In this document: positions 1 through 4,796 of the stretch, piece after piece
Layout: every line of letters begins with the position of its first letter
How positions within the stretch are numbered: position 1 is the stretch's first letter
Source: a virus
Lineage: Duplodnaviria > Heunggongvirae > Uroviricota > Caudoviricetes
Reading direction: 5' to 3' (one strand)
Virus record (IMG/VR): IMGVR_UViG_2778261227_000011
Length of the DNA stretch: 4,796 bases
The notes under the pieces: model-generated
Told to the model about the DNA's origin: nothing
Database searches by the model: none
The model's input: the letters and a program-made list of their open reading frames with translations, nothing else
Program-made: the position numbers and the translations under genes

Positions 1-1024
1 AAAGCTGCTGCAGCCAGACCTGATGAATTGATGAAATGTAGGAATAGAGAACGCTGGCGTTATGTGCAACGTCGCTCGGTACAGGGGGTTTTGAAAGCTG
101 TTTCTCCATCTGGTTAAAGGCATTGATATATGCCTCTTTGAACTGGGCAGCACGTTTACCCGTGAAACCCATAGCAAGAAACGCAAAGCCGTCGCGGGTT
201 ATTTGATAGCAAGGTAGTTTGCGACCTGTGCAATCAGTGTAATCACTCACCGAAAAATTGCGGGCAGTGAATGATGCTGAGCATTCAAGCGTGCGGATCT
301 TTTTCAGTACATCGTCATGACGTTTGGAGAAGAAGTTGGCAACAGCCAGGGATGAAGTAACAGCCTGACCATCAACGATGGCAATTTCAGGTTGAGTGAG
401 GGTTGGGATCGTAGCCATGATGGCAGCCTCTTTGGTGATTTTTAATAACTCACCACCAAGGCTTTCCACGACCTTATTGGTGGTGAGACGTACAGGGGTG
501 GAAATACCGGTCACCAAAGAACCCGGCCCAACCGAAGTTGGCCCTGCACGCCCCACCATAATTTGGGCGTAATGCTGCTCATGACACAAAAAAACCGCAA
601 GAGCGCGGTTGTGCGCTTTGGTGAATTCCGGGTTTCCACGCCCGGCACCCGTTTTATAAGGTGCCTGAACAGTGTAACGTCCCGGAATGGCAGAATCAAT
701 GTGCTGGTGGTCCTTCACACTCAACAAAATCACGCCTGAATTTCCACAAAGGACTAAAGCACTCATGCGGGTAGTCTTTGCGAAGATAGATAACGCGCTG
801 TGTTTCTGGCTCCCAACGAATAACATGGACATAAAGCCCTCTTCCGTCACGAAACCAGCGGTTAAGTTCCTGCACAACTCGCCCCCCACAGTCAGGTAAA
901 GTTCTCTGTGGTTACTTACAGCCAGGTGATCTGGTAATCTGCATTCATGCCGTAACAACAGGTGTTCAGCGACACTGACCACCAGCTGTTGCGACAAACG
1001 GTTATTTGCCGTTAAACTGTTCAT
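1..1024 (-). CDS. Phage early-operon protein, partial (341 codons in window, continues past the left edge). The distal half (encoded about 1-420) is a Rha-family phage regulatory domain; the N-terminal ~200 aa are of unknown function.
   Basis: I checked codon by codon that the minus-strand frame is open from 1027 to position 1, so the six-frame track omits it because it runs off the edge. The ATG at 1024-1022 overlaps the upstream TGA stop at 1023-1021 (ATGA coupling). The translation contains ...IVDGQAVTSSLAVANFFSKRHDDVLKKIR...YQITRDGFAFLAMGFTGKRAAQFKEAYINAFNQMEKQL, which matches my recollection of the Rha (Phage_pRha) signature. An internal ATG at 418 with an AGAGG Shine-Dalgarno is an alternative start just upstream of the Rha domain. 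Confidence 0.65.
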   Translation of the reverse strand, partial: MNSLTANNRLSQQLVVSVAEHLLLRHECRLPDHLAVSNHRELYLTVGGELCRNLTAGFVTEEGFMSMLFVGSQKHSALSIFAKTTRMSALVLCGNSGVILLSVKDHQHIDSAIPGRYTVQAPYKTGAGRGNPEFTKAHNRALAVFLCHEQHYAQIMVGRAGPTSVGPGSLVTGISTPVRLTTNKVVESLGGELLKITKEAAIMATIPTLTQPEIAIVDGQAVTSSLAVANFFSKRHDDVLKKIRTLECSASFTARNFSVSDYTDCTGRKLPCYQITRDGFAFLAMGFTGKRAAQFKEAYINAFNQMEKQLSKPPVPSDVAHNASVLYSYISSIHQVWLQQL

Positions 1025-1599
1025 GCGTTAGTTTCTCCACAGACACAAAACGCCACGACGCCCGGAGCTGCACACTCGCGGGCGTTACTCTTTTCCGGCG
1101 CACAAAAAACACGAAATAACAGTGTTAAATGCTCCTGCCACTTCGCCATTACTTGGTAGCTGTTCTCTTCGATTTGCTCACGCTCAGCCTGGTCAATAAC
1201 TCCATCAGCAGTTGCCTTGCGTAAGTACTGGGAATGCTTGCCAATCCATTCTATTGACTCCATCAGCCGCTGATTAATGTCACCATTGTCAATGTCATCA
1301 ATGTCCACCAGCGGCACAAACACCCCATTACTACGACGCGCTATCGCATCCGTTACATGCCTGGTACCACTGGCATCCTGTAAAACCATGGCCCACTCAA
1401 GTGGAAAAATTTGATCCCCACCGCTACGCAGTCTGTTATGCAATTGATCTTTCGCTGGGGTGATATCATCAGATTTATACAAACCAAGAATTTCCGCTGC
1501 TTCCTCATAGCCATGAGGTAAATCAGCAATCGTTCTTCGTATTGCTGCCACCAGCCATGCTGGTTGCTTATCAACTTTCCATTCAGGTTCTTTACCCAC
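1021..1599 (-). CDS. YdaT-like regulator (functional CII analog of Rac/CP-933P-type prophages), 192 aa, GTG start.
   Basis: This is the frame of the track ORF 1021-1710, but the ATG at 1710 would overlap the Cro-like gene by 83 nt. An in-frame GTG at 1599-1597 is preceded by GAGGA (reverse complement of 1607-1611) at 7-nt spacing and lies 28 nt after the Cro-like stop. Its position directly after a YdaS-type Cro gene and its acidic region DIDDIDNGDINQRLMESIEW fit YdaT/CII-like proteins. The family assignment is from memory, not from a search. Confidence 0.7.
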   Translation of the reverse strand: MGKEPEWKVDKQPAWLVAAIRRTIADLPHGYEEAAEILGLYKSDDITPAKDQLHNRLRSGGDQIFPLEWAMVLQDASGTRHVTDAIARRSNGVFVPLVDIDDIDNGDINQRLMESIEWIGKHSQYLRKATADGVIDQAEREQIEENSYQVMAKWQEHLTLLFRVFCAPEKSNARECAAPGVVAFCVCGETNA

Positions 1600-1627
1600 G
1601 GTTAATTCCTCGTTTCTGTGGTTACGT

Positions 1628-1891
1628 TTACGCAGCTGAACCGCTAACTTTTGAATAGCACTCAGGTAATCCATCATTTGGATTGGGGTAAATATCAGGA
1701 CGCAGTTCATGAGGGGTCACGGACCAGTTTCCCAACTCACAAAGTTGTAAAACCCGTTCTGACGGGACTTGATTGTTAATTACCCAATTAGCGACGGATT
1801 GAGTGGACTTAAAACCAAAGCGACGGGCTACTTCAGATAAAGATTTTCCCGCAGCCTTTACTGCTTTCTCTGTGTAGTTTTGAGATGACAT
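1628..1891 (-). CDS. Cro-like HTH regulator of the YdaS/DicC type, 87 aa.
   Basis: ATG at 1891-1889 is preceded by AGGAG (within the reverse complement of 1893-1905, cagaggagaaagg). The translation has an HTH segment (LSEVARRFGFKSTQSVANWV) and the VTPHELRPDIYP motif typical of YdaS-family Cro-like proteins. It is divergent from a CI-like repressor gene. Confidence 0.85.
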   Translation of the reverse strand: MSSQNYTEKAVKAAGKSLSEVARRFGFKSTQSVANWVINNQVPSERVLQLCELGNWSVTPHELRPDIYPNPNDGLPECYSKVSGSAA

Positions 1892-1899
1892 GCCTTTCT

Positions 1900-1916
1900 C
1901 CTCTGAAATTCAGAGG
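1900..1916. promoter_or_regulatory. 17-bp perfect palindrome cctctgaa-a-ttcagagg at the predicted PR start / Cro-like 5' UTR.
   Basis: 8-bp perfect arms around one central base. It overlaps the Shine-Dalgarno of the Cro-like gene. It may be a protein-binding site or an RNA hairpin. Confidence 0.35.
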
Positions 1917-1917
1917 G

Positions 1918-1946
1918 ATGATGCTACTTAAAATAGCAAATTGCAA
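1918..1946 (-). promoter_or_regulatory. PR-like promoter for the Cro-like operon: -35 TTGCAA (1941-1946), 17-nt spacer containing an operator site, -10 CATCAT (reverse complement of 1918-1923).
   Basis: The minus strand reads TTGCAA-tttg-CTATTTTAAGTAG-CATCAT, which is the same layout as the pL-like promoter at 4301-4329. The predicted start is about 19 nt upstream of the Cro-like ATG, leaving room for the Shine-Dalgarno. Confidence 0.45.
1924..1936. promoter_or_regulatory. Operator site (OR, copy 1): ctacttaaaatag, an imperfect 13-bp dyad of the CTAC-N5-GTAG-like family.
   Basis: Exact 13-bp direct repeat of 1947-1959 at 23-bp centre-to-centre spacing (lambda OR-like). It sits in the spacer of the PR-like promoter. 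Confidence 0.5.
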
Positions 1947-1959
1947 CTACTTAAAATAG
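1947..1959. promoter_or_regulatory. Operator site (OR, copy 2): ctacttaaaatag.
   Basis: Identical to 1924-1936. It lies immediately upstream of the -35 of the candidate PRM. Confidence 0.5.
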
Positions 1960-1961
1960 AA

Positions 1962-1990
1962 ATGACTAGCGCGTGTGATGTGAGTAATCT
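1962..1990 (+). promoter_or_regulatory. Candidate PRM-like promoter for the repressor: -35 ATGACT (1962-1967), 17-nt spacer, -10 TAATCT (1985-1990), start near the ATG at 1998.
   Basis: Weak matches to the sigma-70 consensus, as expected for an activated PRM. The call is purely positional. Confidence 0.25.
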
Positions 1991-1991
1991 T

Positions 1992-2004
1992 CTACCTATG
2001 GTAG
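1992..2004. promoter_or_regulatory. Operator-like dyad (OR, copy 3): ctacctatggtag, with perfect 5-bp arms CTACC/GGTAG; overlaps the repressor start codon at 1998.
   Basis: Same CTAC...GTAG end pattern as the other sites. Its position over the repressor start suggests autorepression. Confidence 0.4.
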
Positions 2005-2702
2005 AAGAACAGAAGTATCCAGATTTCGCCAAGAGACTAAACGAATTGATGACAATCAAAGGAATCTCTGTCACTCAACTCAAAAGTCTTGTGGGCGTTA
2101 CATATGAAATGGCTCGTCGATACACAATCGGCGCAGCGAAGCCACGTGTCTCTGTCATGAGTAAACTTGCGTTGGCTCTTGGGGTATCAGCTTCATATCT
2201 AGAATATGGTGTTGGAGATAGAGAGGAATGTAAGGAAATGGCAAGCATCCCCAATCCAACAAAGCCCGATGTATACAGGATAGAAGTTTTGGATCTTAGC
2301 GTTAGCGCAGGACCTGGGACCTATATGCTTTCAGACTATGTTGATGTGCTCTACGCCATTGAGTTCACAACTGAACATGCCCGTTCTCTTTTCGGAAACC
2401 GTTCTCAGAATGATATAAAAGTTATGACGGTAAATGGAGATAGTATGTCCCCAACTCTTGTTTCCGGGGATCGATTGTTTGTCGACATTTCCGTTCGCCA
2501 CTTCCAGACTGATGGAGTTTACTCTTTCGTTTACGGTAAGACTTTCCATGTTAAACGTCTACAAATGCAAGGCAACAAACTAGCTGTTCTTTCGGATAAC
2601 CCCGCCTATGAGAAATGGTACATTGATGAGAAGTCGCAAGATCAGCTTTATGTTATGGGTAAGGCACTGATTCATGAGTCGATTAAATATAATCGACTTT
2701 AA
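1998..2702 (+). CDS. CI-like prophage repressor: N-terminal XRE-type HTH plus C-terminal S24 (LexA-like) autopeptidase domain, 234 aa. Probably leaderless; in-frame upstream starts at 1962 (ATG) and 1941 (TTG) are possible.
   Basis: HTH region FAKRLNELMTIKGISVTQLKSLVGVTYEMARRY. Putative RecA-dependent cleavage site Ala-Gly in VSAGPG (codons at 2307-2312). Catalytic Ser in VNGDSM and Lys in HVKRL are 37 residues apart, as in LexA. There is no Shine-Dalgarno before 1998, consistent with a leaderless PRM-type transcript. Confidence 0.88.
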   Translation: MVEEQKYPDFAKRLNELMTIKGISVTQLKSLVGVTYEMARRYTIGAAKPRVSVMSKLALALGVSASYLEYGVGDREECKEMASIPNPTKPDVYRIEVLDLSVSAGPGTYMLSDYVDVLYAIEFTTEHARSLFGNRSQNDIKVMTVNGDSMSPTLVSGDRLFVDISVRHFQTDGVYSFVYGKTFHVKRLQMQGNKLAVLSDNPAYEKWYIDEKSQDQLYVMGKALIHESIKYNRL

Positions 2703-2926
2703 TTAGGCATCTAGCAATCGTTAAAGCAAACGAGCACAGATGATAAAAGATAAGGATAGAAAATCTTTATACAAATTTTATTTGGCACATTGGTCCATAA
2801 AAATGGATTAACACTGAGCTGTTACCCTAAGTAAGAAAAGATAAAGACCATATATTATCTTTGGGTGCGTTACTAACACAAAATAAAACATAAATAATAG
2901 ACAATTCTATACAACAGGATACGATA

Positions 2927-4012
2927 ATGATTAATGAACGTACTGAAGCGACAGATGGGGTAGCAGATATGATTTCCACCAATACAAAATATTTAGTATG
3001 GAACAACAAAGGTGGTGTAGGAAAAACTTTTCTTACATATAATCTTGCCGTTGAGTTTGCTATATCTCATCCGGATCAAGATGTTGTGGTTATTGACTCA
3101 TGCCCTCAATCAAACGTTTCAGAAATTATTCTTGGTGGCAATGGTACCGGGGAAGAAAATCTAAATAAATTGCGAGACAGAAATGTTACAATCGCAGGTT
3201 ATATCAAGGAACGTTTTAGCAAATCTCCTTTGTCTCGTTTAGGAAATGAATCTTCTTACTTTGTACGGGCCCATGACGTTAATGCAAAAATGCCAGAGAA
3301 CTTATATATTCTTCCTGGTGATGTCGATCTTGATATCTGTTCACGCTTAATATCTCACATTGGCTCATCCCCAGTAAAAGAAGCATGGAAGAAAAGCCGA
3401 TCTTTGCTGGTAGATCTAATAGCATCTTTTGAAGCCGATAAAAACATTTCTGACAGAGCAAAAACATTTTTTATTGATTGTAATCCAAGTTTTGCCAGCT
3501 ACACAGAATTGGGAGTAGTCGCGGCAAATAGAATAATTATCCCTTGCACTGCCGATGCTGCATCAATTCGCGGAATAAAAAACCTTGTTAAACTTATTTA
3601 TGGAGTGTCTATTGACAAGTCAGAACAAGATGAAATGTTCTTAGATTTCAACAAAGAAGCAAAGCAAAACCTTATCGAACTACCTGAACTACACCTTTTC
3701 GTACAAAACCGCTCAAGAACTAATGAAAGTGATGCAGCAAAAGCATTCAAATCACATGCAGAAGAGATCAAAAGAATCACGGATGACCTGTTAAATACAC
3801 ATCCTCATCTGTTCACAAATGTGGCTACTTTCGAGAGGGTTCAAAATGTCAAAGATGGTAATACTCTTGCAGCAATAATAAACCATGAGGGATGCCCTTT
3901 AAGTAGGCTGCAGCATAAGAGTTACACTATCTATGGTATGGCGACCCAAGCTAATAGAGCACAAATTGAAGCACTAGAATCTGATGTTTCAACAGTAGTC
4001 AAGTGTCTGTAA
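2927..4012 (+). CDS. Orphan ParA/MinD-family (deviant Walker A) P-loop ATPase, 361 aa, on an AT-rich cargo island; function unknown.
   Basis: KGGVGKT deviant Walker A at residues 28-34 (nt 3008-3028); VVVIDSCPQSN (A-prime/switch region); LYILPGDVDLD; Walker B-like FFIDCNPS followed by RIIIPCTADAASIRGIKNL. An AGGA lies about 9 nt upstream of the ATG at 2927. An alternative start at Met15 (2969) would place Walker A at the more typical residue ~14. No parB-like ORF follows. Confidence 0.85.
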   Translation: MINERTEATDGVADMISTNTKYLVWNNKGGVGKTFLTYNLAVEFAISHPDQDVVVIDSCPQSNVSEIILGGNGTGEENLNKLRDRNVTIAGYIKERFSKSPLSRLGNESSYFVRAHDVNAKMPENLYILPGDVDLDICSRLISHIGSSPVKEAWKKSRSLLVDLIASFEADKNISDRAKTFFIDCNPSFASYTELGVVAANRIIIPCTADAASIRGIKNLVKLIYGVSIDKSEQDEMFLDFNKEAKQNLIELPELHLFVQNRSRTNESDAAKAFKSHAEEIKRITDDLLNTHPHLFTNVATFERVQNVKDGNTLAAIINHEGCPLSRLQHKSYTIYGMATQANRAQIEALESDVSTVVKCL

Positions 4013-4047
4013 TACAATAACTATGATTTAGAACGAACATAATTCTC

Positions 4048-4070
4048 GCCCGACCAACCGGTCGGGTTTT
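4048..4070 (+). terminator. Intrinsic terminator downstream of the ATPase gene.
   Basis: Stem cccgacc (4049-4055) pairs with ggtcggg (4060-4066), loop aacc, followed by TTTT (4067-4070). It lies 36 nt after the stop at 4012. Confidence 0.6.
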
Positions 4071-4300
4071 ATACTCGTAGCCTGCTTAATAACACTGTTC
4101 CTGACCCGTTGTATCCATAGTTCCCACTATTTTCCCCCAAATTATTACTATCTAATTAACCTAATAATTAAACCAAAACAAAAGACACTCGATATTTTCT
4201 ATATGTAACTACGCCACATCATCCCATCTGTGAAAAACCTTTTAATTCATAACGTTATATAGAAAACTAAAAATTAAATACACACTTCTACTTTTTGTTG

Positions 4301-4329
4301 TTGATTTTTGCTACTTTTAGTAGCATTAT
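4301..4329 (+). promoter_or_regulatory. pL-like early-left promoter: -35 TTGATT (4301-4306), 17-nt spacer containing an operator, -10 CATTAT (4324-4329).
   Basis: Reads TTGATT-tttg-CTACTTTTAGTAG-CATTAT, sharing the tttgcta...gtagcat core with the PR-like promoter on the other side of the immunity region. Confidence 0.45.
4311..4323. promoter_or_regulatory. Operator site (OL): ctacttttagtag, a 13-bp dyad with arms CTACT/AGTAG.
   Basis: Same family as the OR sites. A degenerate half-site (ctactttttgttg, 4288-4300) lies 23 bp upstream, the same spacing as the OR pair. Confidence 0.5.
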
Positions 4330-4339
4330 TATCTGAACA

Positions 4340-4356
4340 AACAACAGACTGTTGTT
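4340..4356. promoter_or_regulatory. 17-bp perfect palindrome aacaacag-a-ctgttgtt just downstream of the predicted pL start.
   Basis: 8-bp perfect arms around one central base. This is the same geometry and the same position relative to the promoter as the 1900-1916 palindrome at PR, but a different sequence. Confidence 0.3.
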
Positions 4357-4725
4357 AACGAAAGGTTGGTTGTAACACGGCGTATGGCACATGCGTCGTT
4401 AGCGGTCTGGGGACGTTAAAGGGGACAATCCACTCCTTGCTCGAGCAAACAAACCAGGTAGCCGGAATGTGCAAGTCAATGATGATGCTGATAAGACGCC
4501 TAACCAGCGTGGCGATTCGGTTTGACGCCTGGGAAGAGACCAGGGTGCAACGATGAGGGCATTTATGGAGCCGCGACAAAGTGTGGTGCCATAACTGGCT
4601 AAGTGCTCTCAGCGTTGTGGTAATCCGCGAAATGGCGCGGCGGTAAGTATGGCGGGGTTATCCTTACCCCATTAGTGGCACCGGGTTGTCAGGTTGACCA
4701 TACGCTTAAGTGACAACCCCACCAC

Positions 4726-4787
4726 AACAGCCACTGCTTTGGCGGTACCAGTTTGTACACTTGCTTCCGGCTGGTACCGCTCTTTTT
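4726..4787 (+). ncRNA. DicF-like sRNA candidate (prophage-encoded, processed from the early-left transcript); 5' end approximate.
   Basis: tttggcggtaccagtttgtac resembles my recollection of the E. coli DicF core tttggcggtatcagttttac, and it is followed by a hairpin and U-tract. The placement downstream of a repressor-controlled pL-like promoter after a leader with no long ORF mirrors the Qin dicA / ydfABC-dicF-dicB layout. The comparison is to a sequence recalled from memory, not a search. Confidence 0.35.
4741..4787 (+). terminator. Intrinsic terminator hairpin with U-tract; would also form the 3' end of the DicF-like RNA.
   Basis: Perfect 10-bp stem gcggtaccag (4742-4751) / ctggtaccgc (4771-4780), 19-nt loop, then tcttttt (4781-4787). 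There is no U-tract on the opposite strand. Confidence 0.6.
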
Positions 4788-4796
4788 ACAAAACAG

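Follow-up and report, generated by a model that had tools for sequence, protein, structure and literature searches.

CTAC-N5-GTAG dyads as predicted repressor operators in the immunity region of a CPS-53/KpLE1-type lambdoid prophage

In phage lambda the divergent early promoters pL and pR flank the repressor gene cI, operator sites are paired at 23-24 bp, one site adjoins the -35 of PRM, and cI has a leaderless mRNA; OL and OR lie ~2.4 kb apart with rexAB between them, and induction proceeds by S24 autocleavage of the repressor. The CI repressor of phage HK022 binds cooperatively to adjacent operators and supports looping between OL and OR (PMC8053113, citing Carlson and Little 1993). The HK022 record X16093 annotates its operators as 15-bp sites of the form TGAAC-N5-GTTCA, namely OR1-3, OL1-3 and OFR. 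In this study, we analyzed 4,796 nt of viral DNA (Caudoviricetes; IMG/VR record IMGVR_UViG_2778261227_000011), hereafter the window, which by its sequence is the immunity region of a CPS-53/KpLE1-type lambdoid prophage of Escherichia coli. It carries a set of CTAC-N5-GTAG dyads at its two early promoters and over the start of a cI-like gene. Very probably, judging from sequence conservation and from the analogy with HK022, these dyads are the operators of the CI-type repressor, which would shut the two early promoters and regulate its own gene.

Dyads at the two early promoters

The preliminary description of the window had drawn two early promoters on a common template with an operator inside each spacer, and all of the strings it quoted are located where it had placed them. 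The pR-like promoter reads TTGCAA-TTTG-CTATTTTAAGTAG-CATCAT on the minus strand, from 1946 to 1918, and the pL-like promoter reads TTGATT-TTTG-CTACTTTTAGTAG-CATTAT on the plus strand at 4301-4329, with a 17-nt spacer in both. The dyad family is also real and far above chance: CTAY-N5-RTAG is matched at 1924, 1947, 1992 and 4311, four times against 0.23 expected, and none of 200 dinucleotide shuffles reached four. A motif search over the window and its relatives, which had been proposed as a check, returned these four sites and a fifth at 4288. The position matrix used for scanning was trained on the sites of the relatives alone with the window excluded, so the scan is not circular. The next-best position in the window after the five sites (Table 1) scored 3.3 bits, more than 10 bits below the fifth, and the highest score over 300 shuffles was 17.2 bits. 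With no sixth site above 3.3 bits, the matrix scan found no equivalent of OL3 or OFR in the window.

The sites are embedded in larger symmetries. Positions 1918-1964 and 4283-4329 form a 47-nt inverted repeat, 77% complementary and the longest in the window. OR3 is the core of an 8+3+8 palindrome, CTTCTACC-TAT-GGTAGAAG (1989-2007), with the full form TTCTAC-CTATG-GTAGAA. OL1 reads GCTAC-TTTTA-GTAGC and overlaps the CATTAT -10, and OR2 adjoins the -35 of pR on one side and the predicted -35 of PRM on the other. A further candidate operator inside cro, CTACTTCAGATAA at 1828-1840, was rejected: its matrix score is -0.1 bits, it is coding sequence for L-S-E-V-A, and among relatives the Leu and Val codons vary and the dyad is broken in three of seven loci. 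The same string is nearer to the consensus in three relatives and is not a conserved site.

Conservation was assessed in loci that share the recognition helix of the repressor. CI homologues were drawn from a large protein collection, and ~40 of the best 120 share GVTYEM(A/V)RRYT(I/L)G at 66-96% overall identity. Ten loci were compared with the window, six from Citrobacter, Klebsiella and metagenomes and four being further E. coli alleles, which makes eleven loci in all. The CI proteins of these relatives are ~70-96% identical, and their recognition helix, GVTYEM[A/V]RRY, is nearly unchanged (L142 has H for Y). All five sites are present in 11 of 11 loci, and 416 of the 440 arm bases at the 55 sites are CTAC/GTAG. 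The spacing is equally constant: OR1 and OR2 are 23 bp apart (22 in two loci), OR2 and OR3 always 45 bp, and OL2 and OL1 always 23 bp. The OL-OR distance varies from 1554 to 2731 bp because the cargo genes between cI and OL differ. Central pentamers vary as well (e.g., CTACCATAAGTAG, CTACCTCAAGTAG, CTACTTTTGGTAG), flanks diverge, and upstream of OL2 the DNA of the loci can hardly be aligned at all. Conserved arms amid changing centers and flanks are the mark of a protein that recognizes the arm sequence.

These comparisons also refine the sites themselves. OR1, OL1 and OR3 are almost always perfect, OL2 often has one mismatch, and OR2 has one or two arm mismatches in every locus, which points to OR2 as an intrinsically weak site. 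The conserved arms and spacings support the proposed three-site OR. The repeat had been described as a 13-bp dyad; the repeat itself stands, and a length of 15-17 bp, (t)tCTAC-N5-GTAGa(a), fits better. Positions 4288-4300 (CTACTTTTTGTTG), previously regarded as a degenerate half-site, are a full OL2 dyad with one arm mismatch, because the site is perfect (CTACTTTTTGTAG) in four of the relatives (L008, L010, L016 and L143).

The dyad changes together with the recognition helix. Loci with the helix TPGVWKWFNAQ (L017, L005) carry TAAC-N5-GTTA, with three copies at OR, one of them on the ATG, and a pair spaced 24 bp at OL. Loci with the helix TPKAVSKWFNGE (L018, L006, HK022 and HK75) carry GAAC-N5-GTTC, and HK639 carries ATAAC-N4-GTTAT. 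No CTAC dyads were found at these positions in the TAAC, GAAC or HK639 relatives. A scan of genome contigs returned no more than three loci, with no CTAC type among them, and a literature search with the operator strings returned unrelated eukaryotic papers only, with this DNA specificity not found described. Judged by these comparisons, CTAC-N5-GTAG with the helix TYEMARRY appears to be a new specificity class of the HK022/HK639 repressor family.

The repressor and the proposed switch

Among phage repressors, the closest to the CI of the window by tblastn are those of HK639 (58% identity) and HK022 (43%). Pfam recognizes an N-terminal helix-turn-helix (HTH) domain, HTH_3, at 25.2 bits against a cut-off of 23, and a C-terminal Peptidase_S24 domain at 60.2 bits. 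In the structure model, the N-terminal domain has five helices with a predicted local distance difference test score (pLDDT) of 85-93; helices 25-32 and 36-44 (pLDDT ~90) form the HTH, residues 36-44 being its second helix. This domain superposes on 434 Cro (2cro) with a template modeling (TM) score of 0.90 and a root-mean-square deviation of 1.3 Å. The whole model matches the lambda and LexA repressors in fold; its C-terminal domain is of low confidence and was not used. A phmmer search of CI against solved structures gave no match, lambda CI included. SOS-dependent autocleavage at A104-G105 is to be expected from the sequence because the Ala-Gly site, Ser149 and Lys186 are invariant in 35 homologues and Lys186 (VKRL) aligns with Lys156 of LexA.

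Because OR3 is centered on the cI ATG, operator specificity is coupled to the N-terminus of the repressor. Codons 2-3 are an operator half-site, GTAGAA or Val-Glu here, GTTCAA or Val-Gln in the HK022 type and GTTAAG or Val-Lys in the TAAC type (starts compared: L017, L018, L003). A start-codon operator of this kind forces residues 2-3 of the repressor to be V-E, V-Q or V-K.

The promoter hexamers are weak, and we assign pR and pL because of their conservation and the analogy with HK022, an assignment that is plausible on sequence alone. The sole invariant bases between OR2 and OR1 are TTG, immediately after OR2, and CATYAT lies beyond OR1, 17 bp on. For PRM, AAATGAC (1961-1967) and GTAAYCT (1984-1990) are conserved in aligned loci, with free variation in the intervening 17 nt, and the cI ATG at 1998 has no preceding Shine-Dalgarno. 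PRM is predicted to start near A1998, the first base of that ATG, which would give a leaderless cI mRNA. The center of OR2 would then fall near -45 of PRM and OR3 over its start.

We infer binding, cooperativity, looping, activation of PRM and the transcription starts, and on these terms the switch would operate as follows. A CI dimer would bind the 15-17-bp dyads, each early promoter having a strong site within its 17-nt spacer (OR1 in pR, OL1 in pL) and a weaker partner 23 bp upstream against its -35 (OR2, OL2), and the pairs would be filled cooperatively. Filled pairs would exclude RNA polymerase from pL and from pR, the latter serving cro, the cII-like gene and onward. OR2, which abuts the -35 of PRM (ATGACT-17-TAATCT), could serve to activate PRM, and OR3 on the cI ATG would mediate negative autoregulation of cI. 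A loop between OL and OR, 2.39 kb apart (2387 bp), is probable. Induction of the prophage would follow from RecA-stimulated cleavage at A104-G105, and Cro probably uses the same sites.

Competing explanations

Several observations weigh against reading the dyads as CI operators that control these promoters. The HTHs of Cro and CI both co-vary with dyad type, and the comparison cannot tell whether the dyads are bound by CI, Cro or both. The hexamers of pR and pL are weak, each with 8 of 12 matches to the sigma-70 consensus; a consensus promoter scan of the window calls neither, and comparable consensus matches are not enriched in the window. The earlier placement of the two promoters agrees with conservation and the HK022 analogy and finds no backing in the consensus scan. 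The OR layout is unlike that of lambda and HK022, so activation of PRM from OR2 is an extrapolation. The conserved palindrome at the start of pR (1900-1916) falls outside the operator model, the invariance of OR3 is partly due to its encoding Met-Val-Glu, and the related loci do not count as independent, several being close to one another.

Two features of a different kind, the 17-bp palindromes at the starts of pR and pL (Table 1), need to be taken into account. The outer arms of the pR palindrome, CCTCT-N7-AGAGG, are kept in most relatives, once in each locus. The palindrome lies in the slot of HK022 OR1 and is not a CI-type site, sharing TCTA/TAGA with the CI site at a spacing 2 bp shorter. 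We considered it as a 5′ hairpin of the cro mRNA, for which it would be worth -10 kcal/mol if transcribed, and rejected this role: a start at ~1910-1912 leaves the upstream arm untranscribed, and in L142 and L143 compensation at the inner positions is inconsistent. The pL palindrome is allele-specific and, because it is absent from the pL regions of the relatives, is not part of the conserved switch. A doubtful idea is that OR was rebuilt, with the CI sites moved one slot upstream of those of HK022 and the vacated slot filled by CCTCT-N7-AGAGG, which would either be bound by a second protein with a specificity of its own (Cro or some third factor) or act as a switch that hides the Shine-Dalgarno. 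If true, the lytic and lysogenic repressors of a rebuilt OR would act without competing for identical sites, unlike in lambda.

Could the dyads instead serve Cro or another early protein alone, with CI acting elsewhere, for example on the 17-bp palindromes (1900-1916 and 4339-4355)? The Cro HTH, SLSEVARRFGFKSTQSVANW, is identical across loci with the same operator and different in other immunity groups, which makes it as conserved as the CI HTH within the CTAC group and equally changeable between groups, and the conserved outer arms of the pR palindrome lie in the HK022 OR1 slot. However, the two palindromes are unrelated in sequence, and with the pL copy missing from all relatives and the pR copy occurring once per locus they could not coordinate control of pL, pR and cI; they were rejected as repressor operators. 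The operators of the homologous HK022 repressor are dyads at these same positions, and OR3 over the cI start fits autoregulation by CI. We consider an exclusive role for Cro or another early protein very unlikely. By comparison of the loci, the dyads are part of the immunity module, and by analogy with HK022 and lambda both CI and Cro would bind them.

It is less likely still, indeed barely credible, that the dyads work as hairpins, in RNA or in DNA, for example as terminators or processing sites, and not as protein sites. A terminator scan does flag 4309-4325 (TGCTACTTTTAGTAGCA followed by TTATTAT) as terminator-like, but the stem of the dyad is AT-rich with 3 G-C pairs, and the arms of the 55 sites hold to one sequence without compensatory changes while the centers vary. 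The same arms also recur at five positions on DNA read both ways, and the arm sequence switches along with the recognition helix of the repressor. A third alternative accepts the CI operators and moves the promoters, with an HK022-like pR -10 between OR2 and OR1 and a start inside OR1. HK022 itself and relatives of the TAAC and GAAC types have this arrangement, with OR1 over the start, and the weakness of the hexamers proposed here speaks for it as well. However, the OR2-OR1 interval keeps TTG and varies in the rest (TTGCAA, TTGCTA, TTGTAT, TTGATC, TTGATA, TTGCCT, TTGTCA), as for a -35 and not a -10. We favor the original placement of pR because of this pattern of TTG with CATYAT conserved 17 bp downstream and because pL is built identically and matches the annotated pL of HK022; relocation of the promoters is improbable, though not as far-fetched as the other two alternatives. 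The reading of the dyads as CI operators is preferred because arms and spacings are conserved, the dyad switches with the helix, and HK022 operators of the same geometry stand at homologous positions.

Neighboring features and comparison with known systems

Table 1. Predicted operators, promoters, palindromes, genes and other features of the window.
Feature	Position	Strand	Setting	Evidence
OR1, CTACTTAAAATAG	1924-1936		inside pR spacer	matrix 20.9 bits (at 1922), conservation
OR2, CTACTTAAAATAG	1947-1959		23 bp from OR1	matrix 19.7 bits (at 1945), conservation
OR3, CTACCTATGGTAG	1992-2004		centered on cI start codon	matrix 19.1 bits (at 1990), invariant in 11 loci
OL2, CTACTTTTTGTTG	4288-4300		23 bp from OL1, abuts pL -35	matrix 13.8 bits (at 4286), one arm mismatch
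OL1, CTACTTTTAGTAG	4311-4323		inside pL spacer	matrix 22.2 bits (at 4309)
pR -10 CATCAT, predicted	1918-1923	-		CATYAT conserved, 17 bp from invariant TTG
pR -35 TTGCAA, predicted	1941-1946	-		TTG invariant in 11 loci, other three bases vary
pL -35 TTGATT, predicted	4301-4306	+		TTG invariant in relatives
pL -10 CATTAT, predicted	4324-4329	+		CAATAT, GAATAT or CAACAT in relatives, register unchanged
PRM -35 ATGACT, predicted	1962-1967	+	17-nt spacer to -10	
PRM -10 TAATCT, predicted	1985-1990	+		
Perfect 17-bp palindrome, CCTCTGAAATTCAGAGG	1900-1916		~-5 to +12 of pR, includes cro Shine-Dalgarno	
17-bp palindrome, AACAACAGACTGTTGTT	4339-4355	+	~+4 to +20 of pL transcript	
Non-coding pL leader module, 440 nt	4356-4796	+		shared with phages and E. 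coli genomes
cro-like gene, 87 aa, YdaS-type HTH	1628-1891	-	first in pR operon	open reading frame, Pfam YdaS_toxin 42.8 bits, PHROG 35
CII-like protein gene	1021-1710	-		
cI-like repressor gene, 234 aa, HTH_3 + Peptidase_S24	1998-2702	+		Pfam
ParA-like ATPase cargo gene	2927-4012	+	between cI and OL	
Terminator-like hairpin	4048-4067	+	closes cI-parA unit	terminator scan

In E. coli C311, whose DNA matches the window at 99.9% identity, this region has replication/Q-side genes on one side and yfdP-yfdQ-yfdR on the other. The OR segment was found in 206 of 5426 complete E. coli genomes, NCTC86 among them, and the same immunity type also occurs in prophages of Citrobacter, Klebsiella and Gibbsiella. 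In the phage collection searched, the immunity region is absent from all records, matches are restricted to the pL leader, and this immunity is missing from all sequenced phage isolates. The slot between cI and OL (2927-4067), which corresponds to the position of rexAB in lambda, holds different cargo among the relatives (L008-L016, L141-L144): a ParA-like ATPase (seen in the window, NCTC86 and L016), a HigB-like toxin, HicAB, a RelA/SpoT-domain protein or small open reading frames without assignment. The ParA-like protein gave no convincing match to PADLOC (best Drt5, E = 0.007). After the hairpin that closes the cI-parA unit comes an AT-rich gap and then, on the plus strand, the pL-like promoter and its leader.

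The leader is a separate mobile module, shared with phages mEp460 and cdtI, with Stx2c phages and with 4576 of 5426 E. coli genomes; the phage copies carry annotated reverse-strand hypothetical open reading frames. Its fold has a z-score of -2.4. At the 3′ end is a terminator-like hairpin (4742-4751 / 4771-4780) followed by TCTTTTT, and at the 5′ end a 10-bp hairpin (4377-4399) whose ACGGCG...CAUGCGUCG is found also in stem I of put, the only feature in common. An identity as a put antiterminator RNA, the family of HK022 putL/putR and the putL-like element of HK639, was rejected using a covariance model built from 14 put sequences, which gave no match with default filters and, with filters off, -0.2 bits at stem I (4378-4398). 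Rfam, which has no put family, had no match in the leader either. The leader may be an RNA of unclassified type that acts in antitermination or regulation. Among the other alleles with this immunity, most have a different pL leader, ...CAGGCAGGACGCCCACGAAGTAGCCGCC-hairpin-GATGATTCG (L008 7710-7790, L010 6700-6780, L013 6497-6575, L141 5800-5880), in which the hairpin arms compensate (CCGGU/ACCGG, CCUGG/CCAGG, CCCCA/UGGGG, CCCGG/CCGGG) around a conserved loop GGCRUAUGAAK, so that this alternative leader resembles a structured RNA element.

Elsewhere in the window, Rfam matches a C4 antisense RNA at 476-563 on the minus strand (83.6 bits) and isrK at 588-664 on the same strand (67.9 bits), with a weak match to the c4-a1b1 target at 625-677. 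Together, C4 and isrK resemble the antirepressor control modules of P1 immI and Gifsy-1 isrK, here inside the pR operon. A RefSeq "Rha family" coding sequence (L001 7274-8425) runs across both RNAs and is probably over-extended.

This study defines a predicted operator set, ttCTAC-N5-GTAGaa, for the immunity type carried by those 206 E. coli genomes. The CTAC, GAAC (HK022), TAAC and HK639 classes form a natural series in which scaffold and geometry stay constant while helix and half-site change together. Such a series is useful for understanding the divergence of immunity specificity and as a source of orthogonal repressor/operator pairs.

The preliminary description had matched the operators to none that it recognized and had called the architecture lambda-like. 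The first point does not hold: the design is of the HK022 type, xxAC-N5-GTxx with OR3 on the cI ATG, with a different half-site (tCTAC-N5-GTAGa here, TGAAC-N5-GTTCA there). The CI proteins are homologous at 43% overall and more similar in the C-terminal domain. OR3 sits on the cI start in the same register, TTGAACTTATGGTTCAA (TTGAAC-TTATG-GTTCAA) in HK022 and TTCTACCTATGGTAGAA in the window, and neither cI start has a Shine-Dalgarno. In both systems OL1 lies in the pL spacer overlapping the -10, OL2 lies upstream at the -35 (24 bp away in HK022, 23 bp here), and the -10s are of the CATCAT type (CATCAT at HK022 pL, CATAAT at HK022 pR). The differences include the half-site, GAAC against CTAC, and the helix, TPKAVSKW against TYEMARRY. 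In HK022 the spacer holds OR2, OR1 lies downstream of the -10 over the start, and the sites are spaced at 24 and 33 bp, whereas in the window OR1 is in the spacer and OR2 upstream of the -35, at 23 and 45 bp, both sites one slot further upstream. OL3 and OFR of HK022 have no counterpart in the window above background, a cargo gene parts cI from OL in the window, and the covariance model does not place the window's pL leader among the put RNAs.

HK639, with its closer CI, shares the gene order cII-cro-cI, cargo, pL and a dyad in the pL spacer; it differs in its ATAAC-N4-GTTAT dyads, in an N-terminus that begins MKTF... and in having no operator in the same register at the start codon. The TAAC-N5-GTTA group of Klebsiella and Citrobacter (L017, L005) has a CI C-terminal domain ~75% identical, the same prophage backbone, OR3 over the ATG and a pair of OL sites 24 bp apart, and it differs in helix, in half-site and in an OR laid out as in HK022 (24 and 32 bp).

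As to the likeness to lambda, the operators at the early promoters stand, and the OR layout, which matches neither lambda nor HK022, and the two-site OL do not. The window and lambda have in common the flanking pL and pR, paired sites, a site at the PRM -35 and a leaderless cI mRNA (both predicted here), an OL-OR distance of ~2.4 kb, cargo in the rexAB slot and, as expected from the sequence, induction through S24 autocleavage. The CI of the window has no detectable match to solved lambda CI by phmmer and resembles it in fold alone, and operator sequence and length differ. Lambda operators overlap the promoter hexamers and number three each at OR and OL, whereas those of the window fill the spacer and number three at OR and two at OL; OR3 here falls on the predicted start of PRM and, instead of being the weakest site, is the best palindrome. 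The understanding of the lambdoid switch mechanism is unchanged, and the window would hold an ordinary lambda/HK022-style switch with an HK022-type pL and a re-spaced OR.

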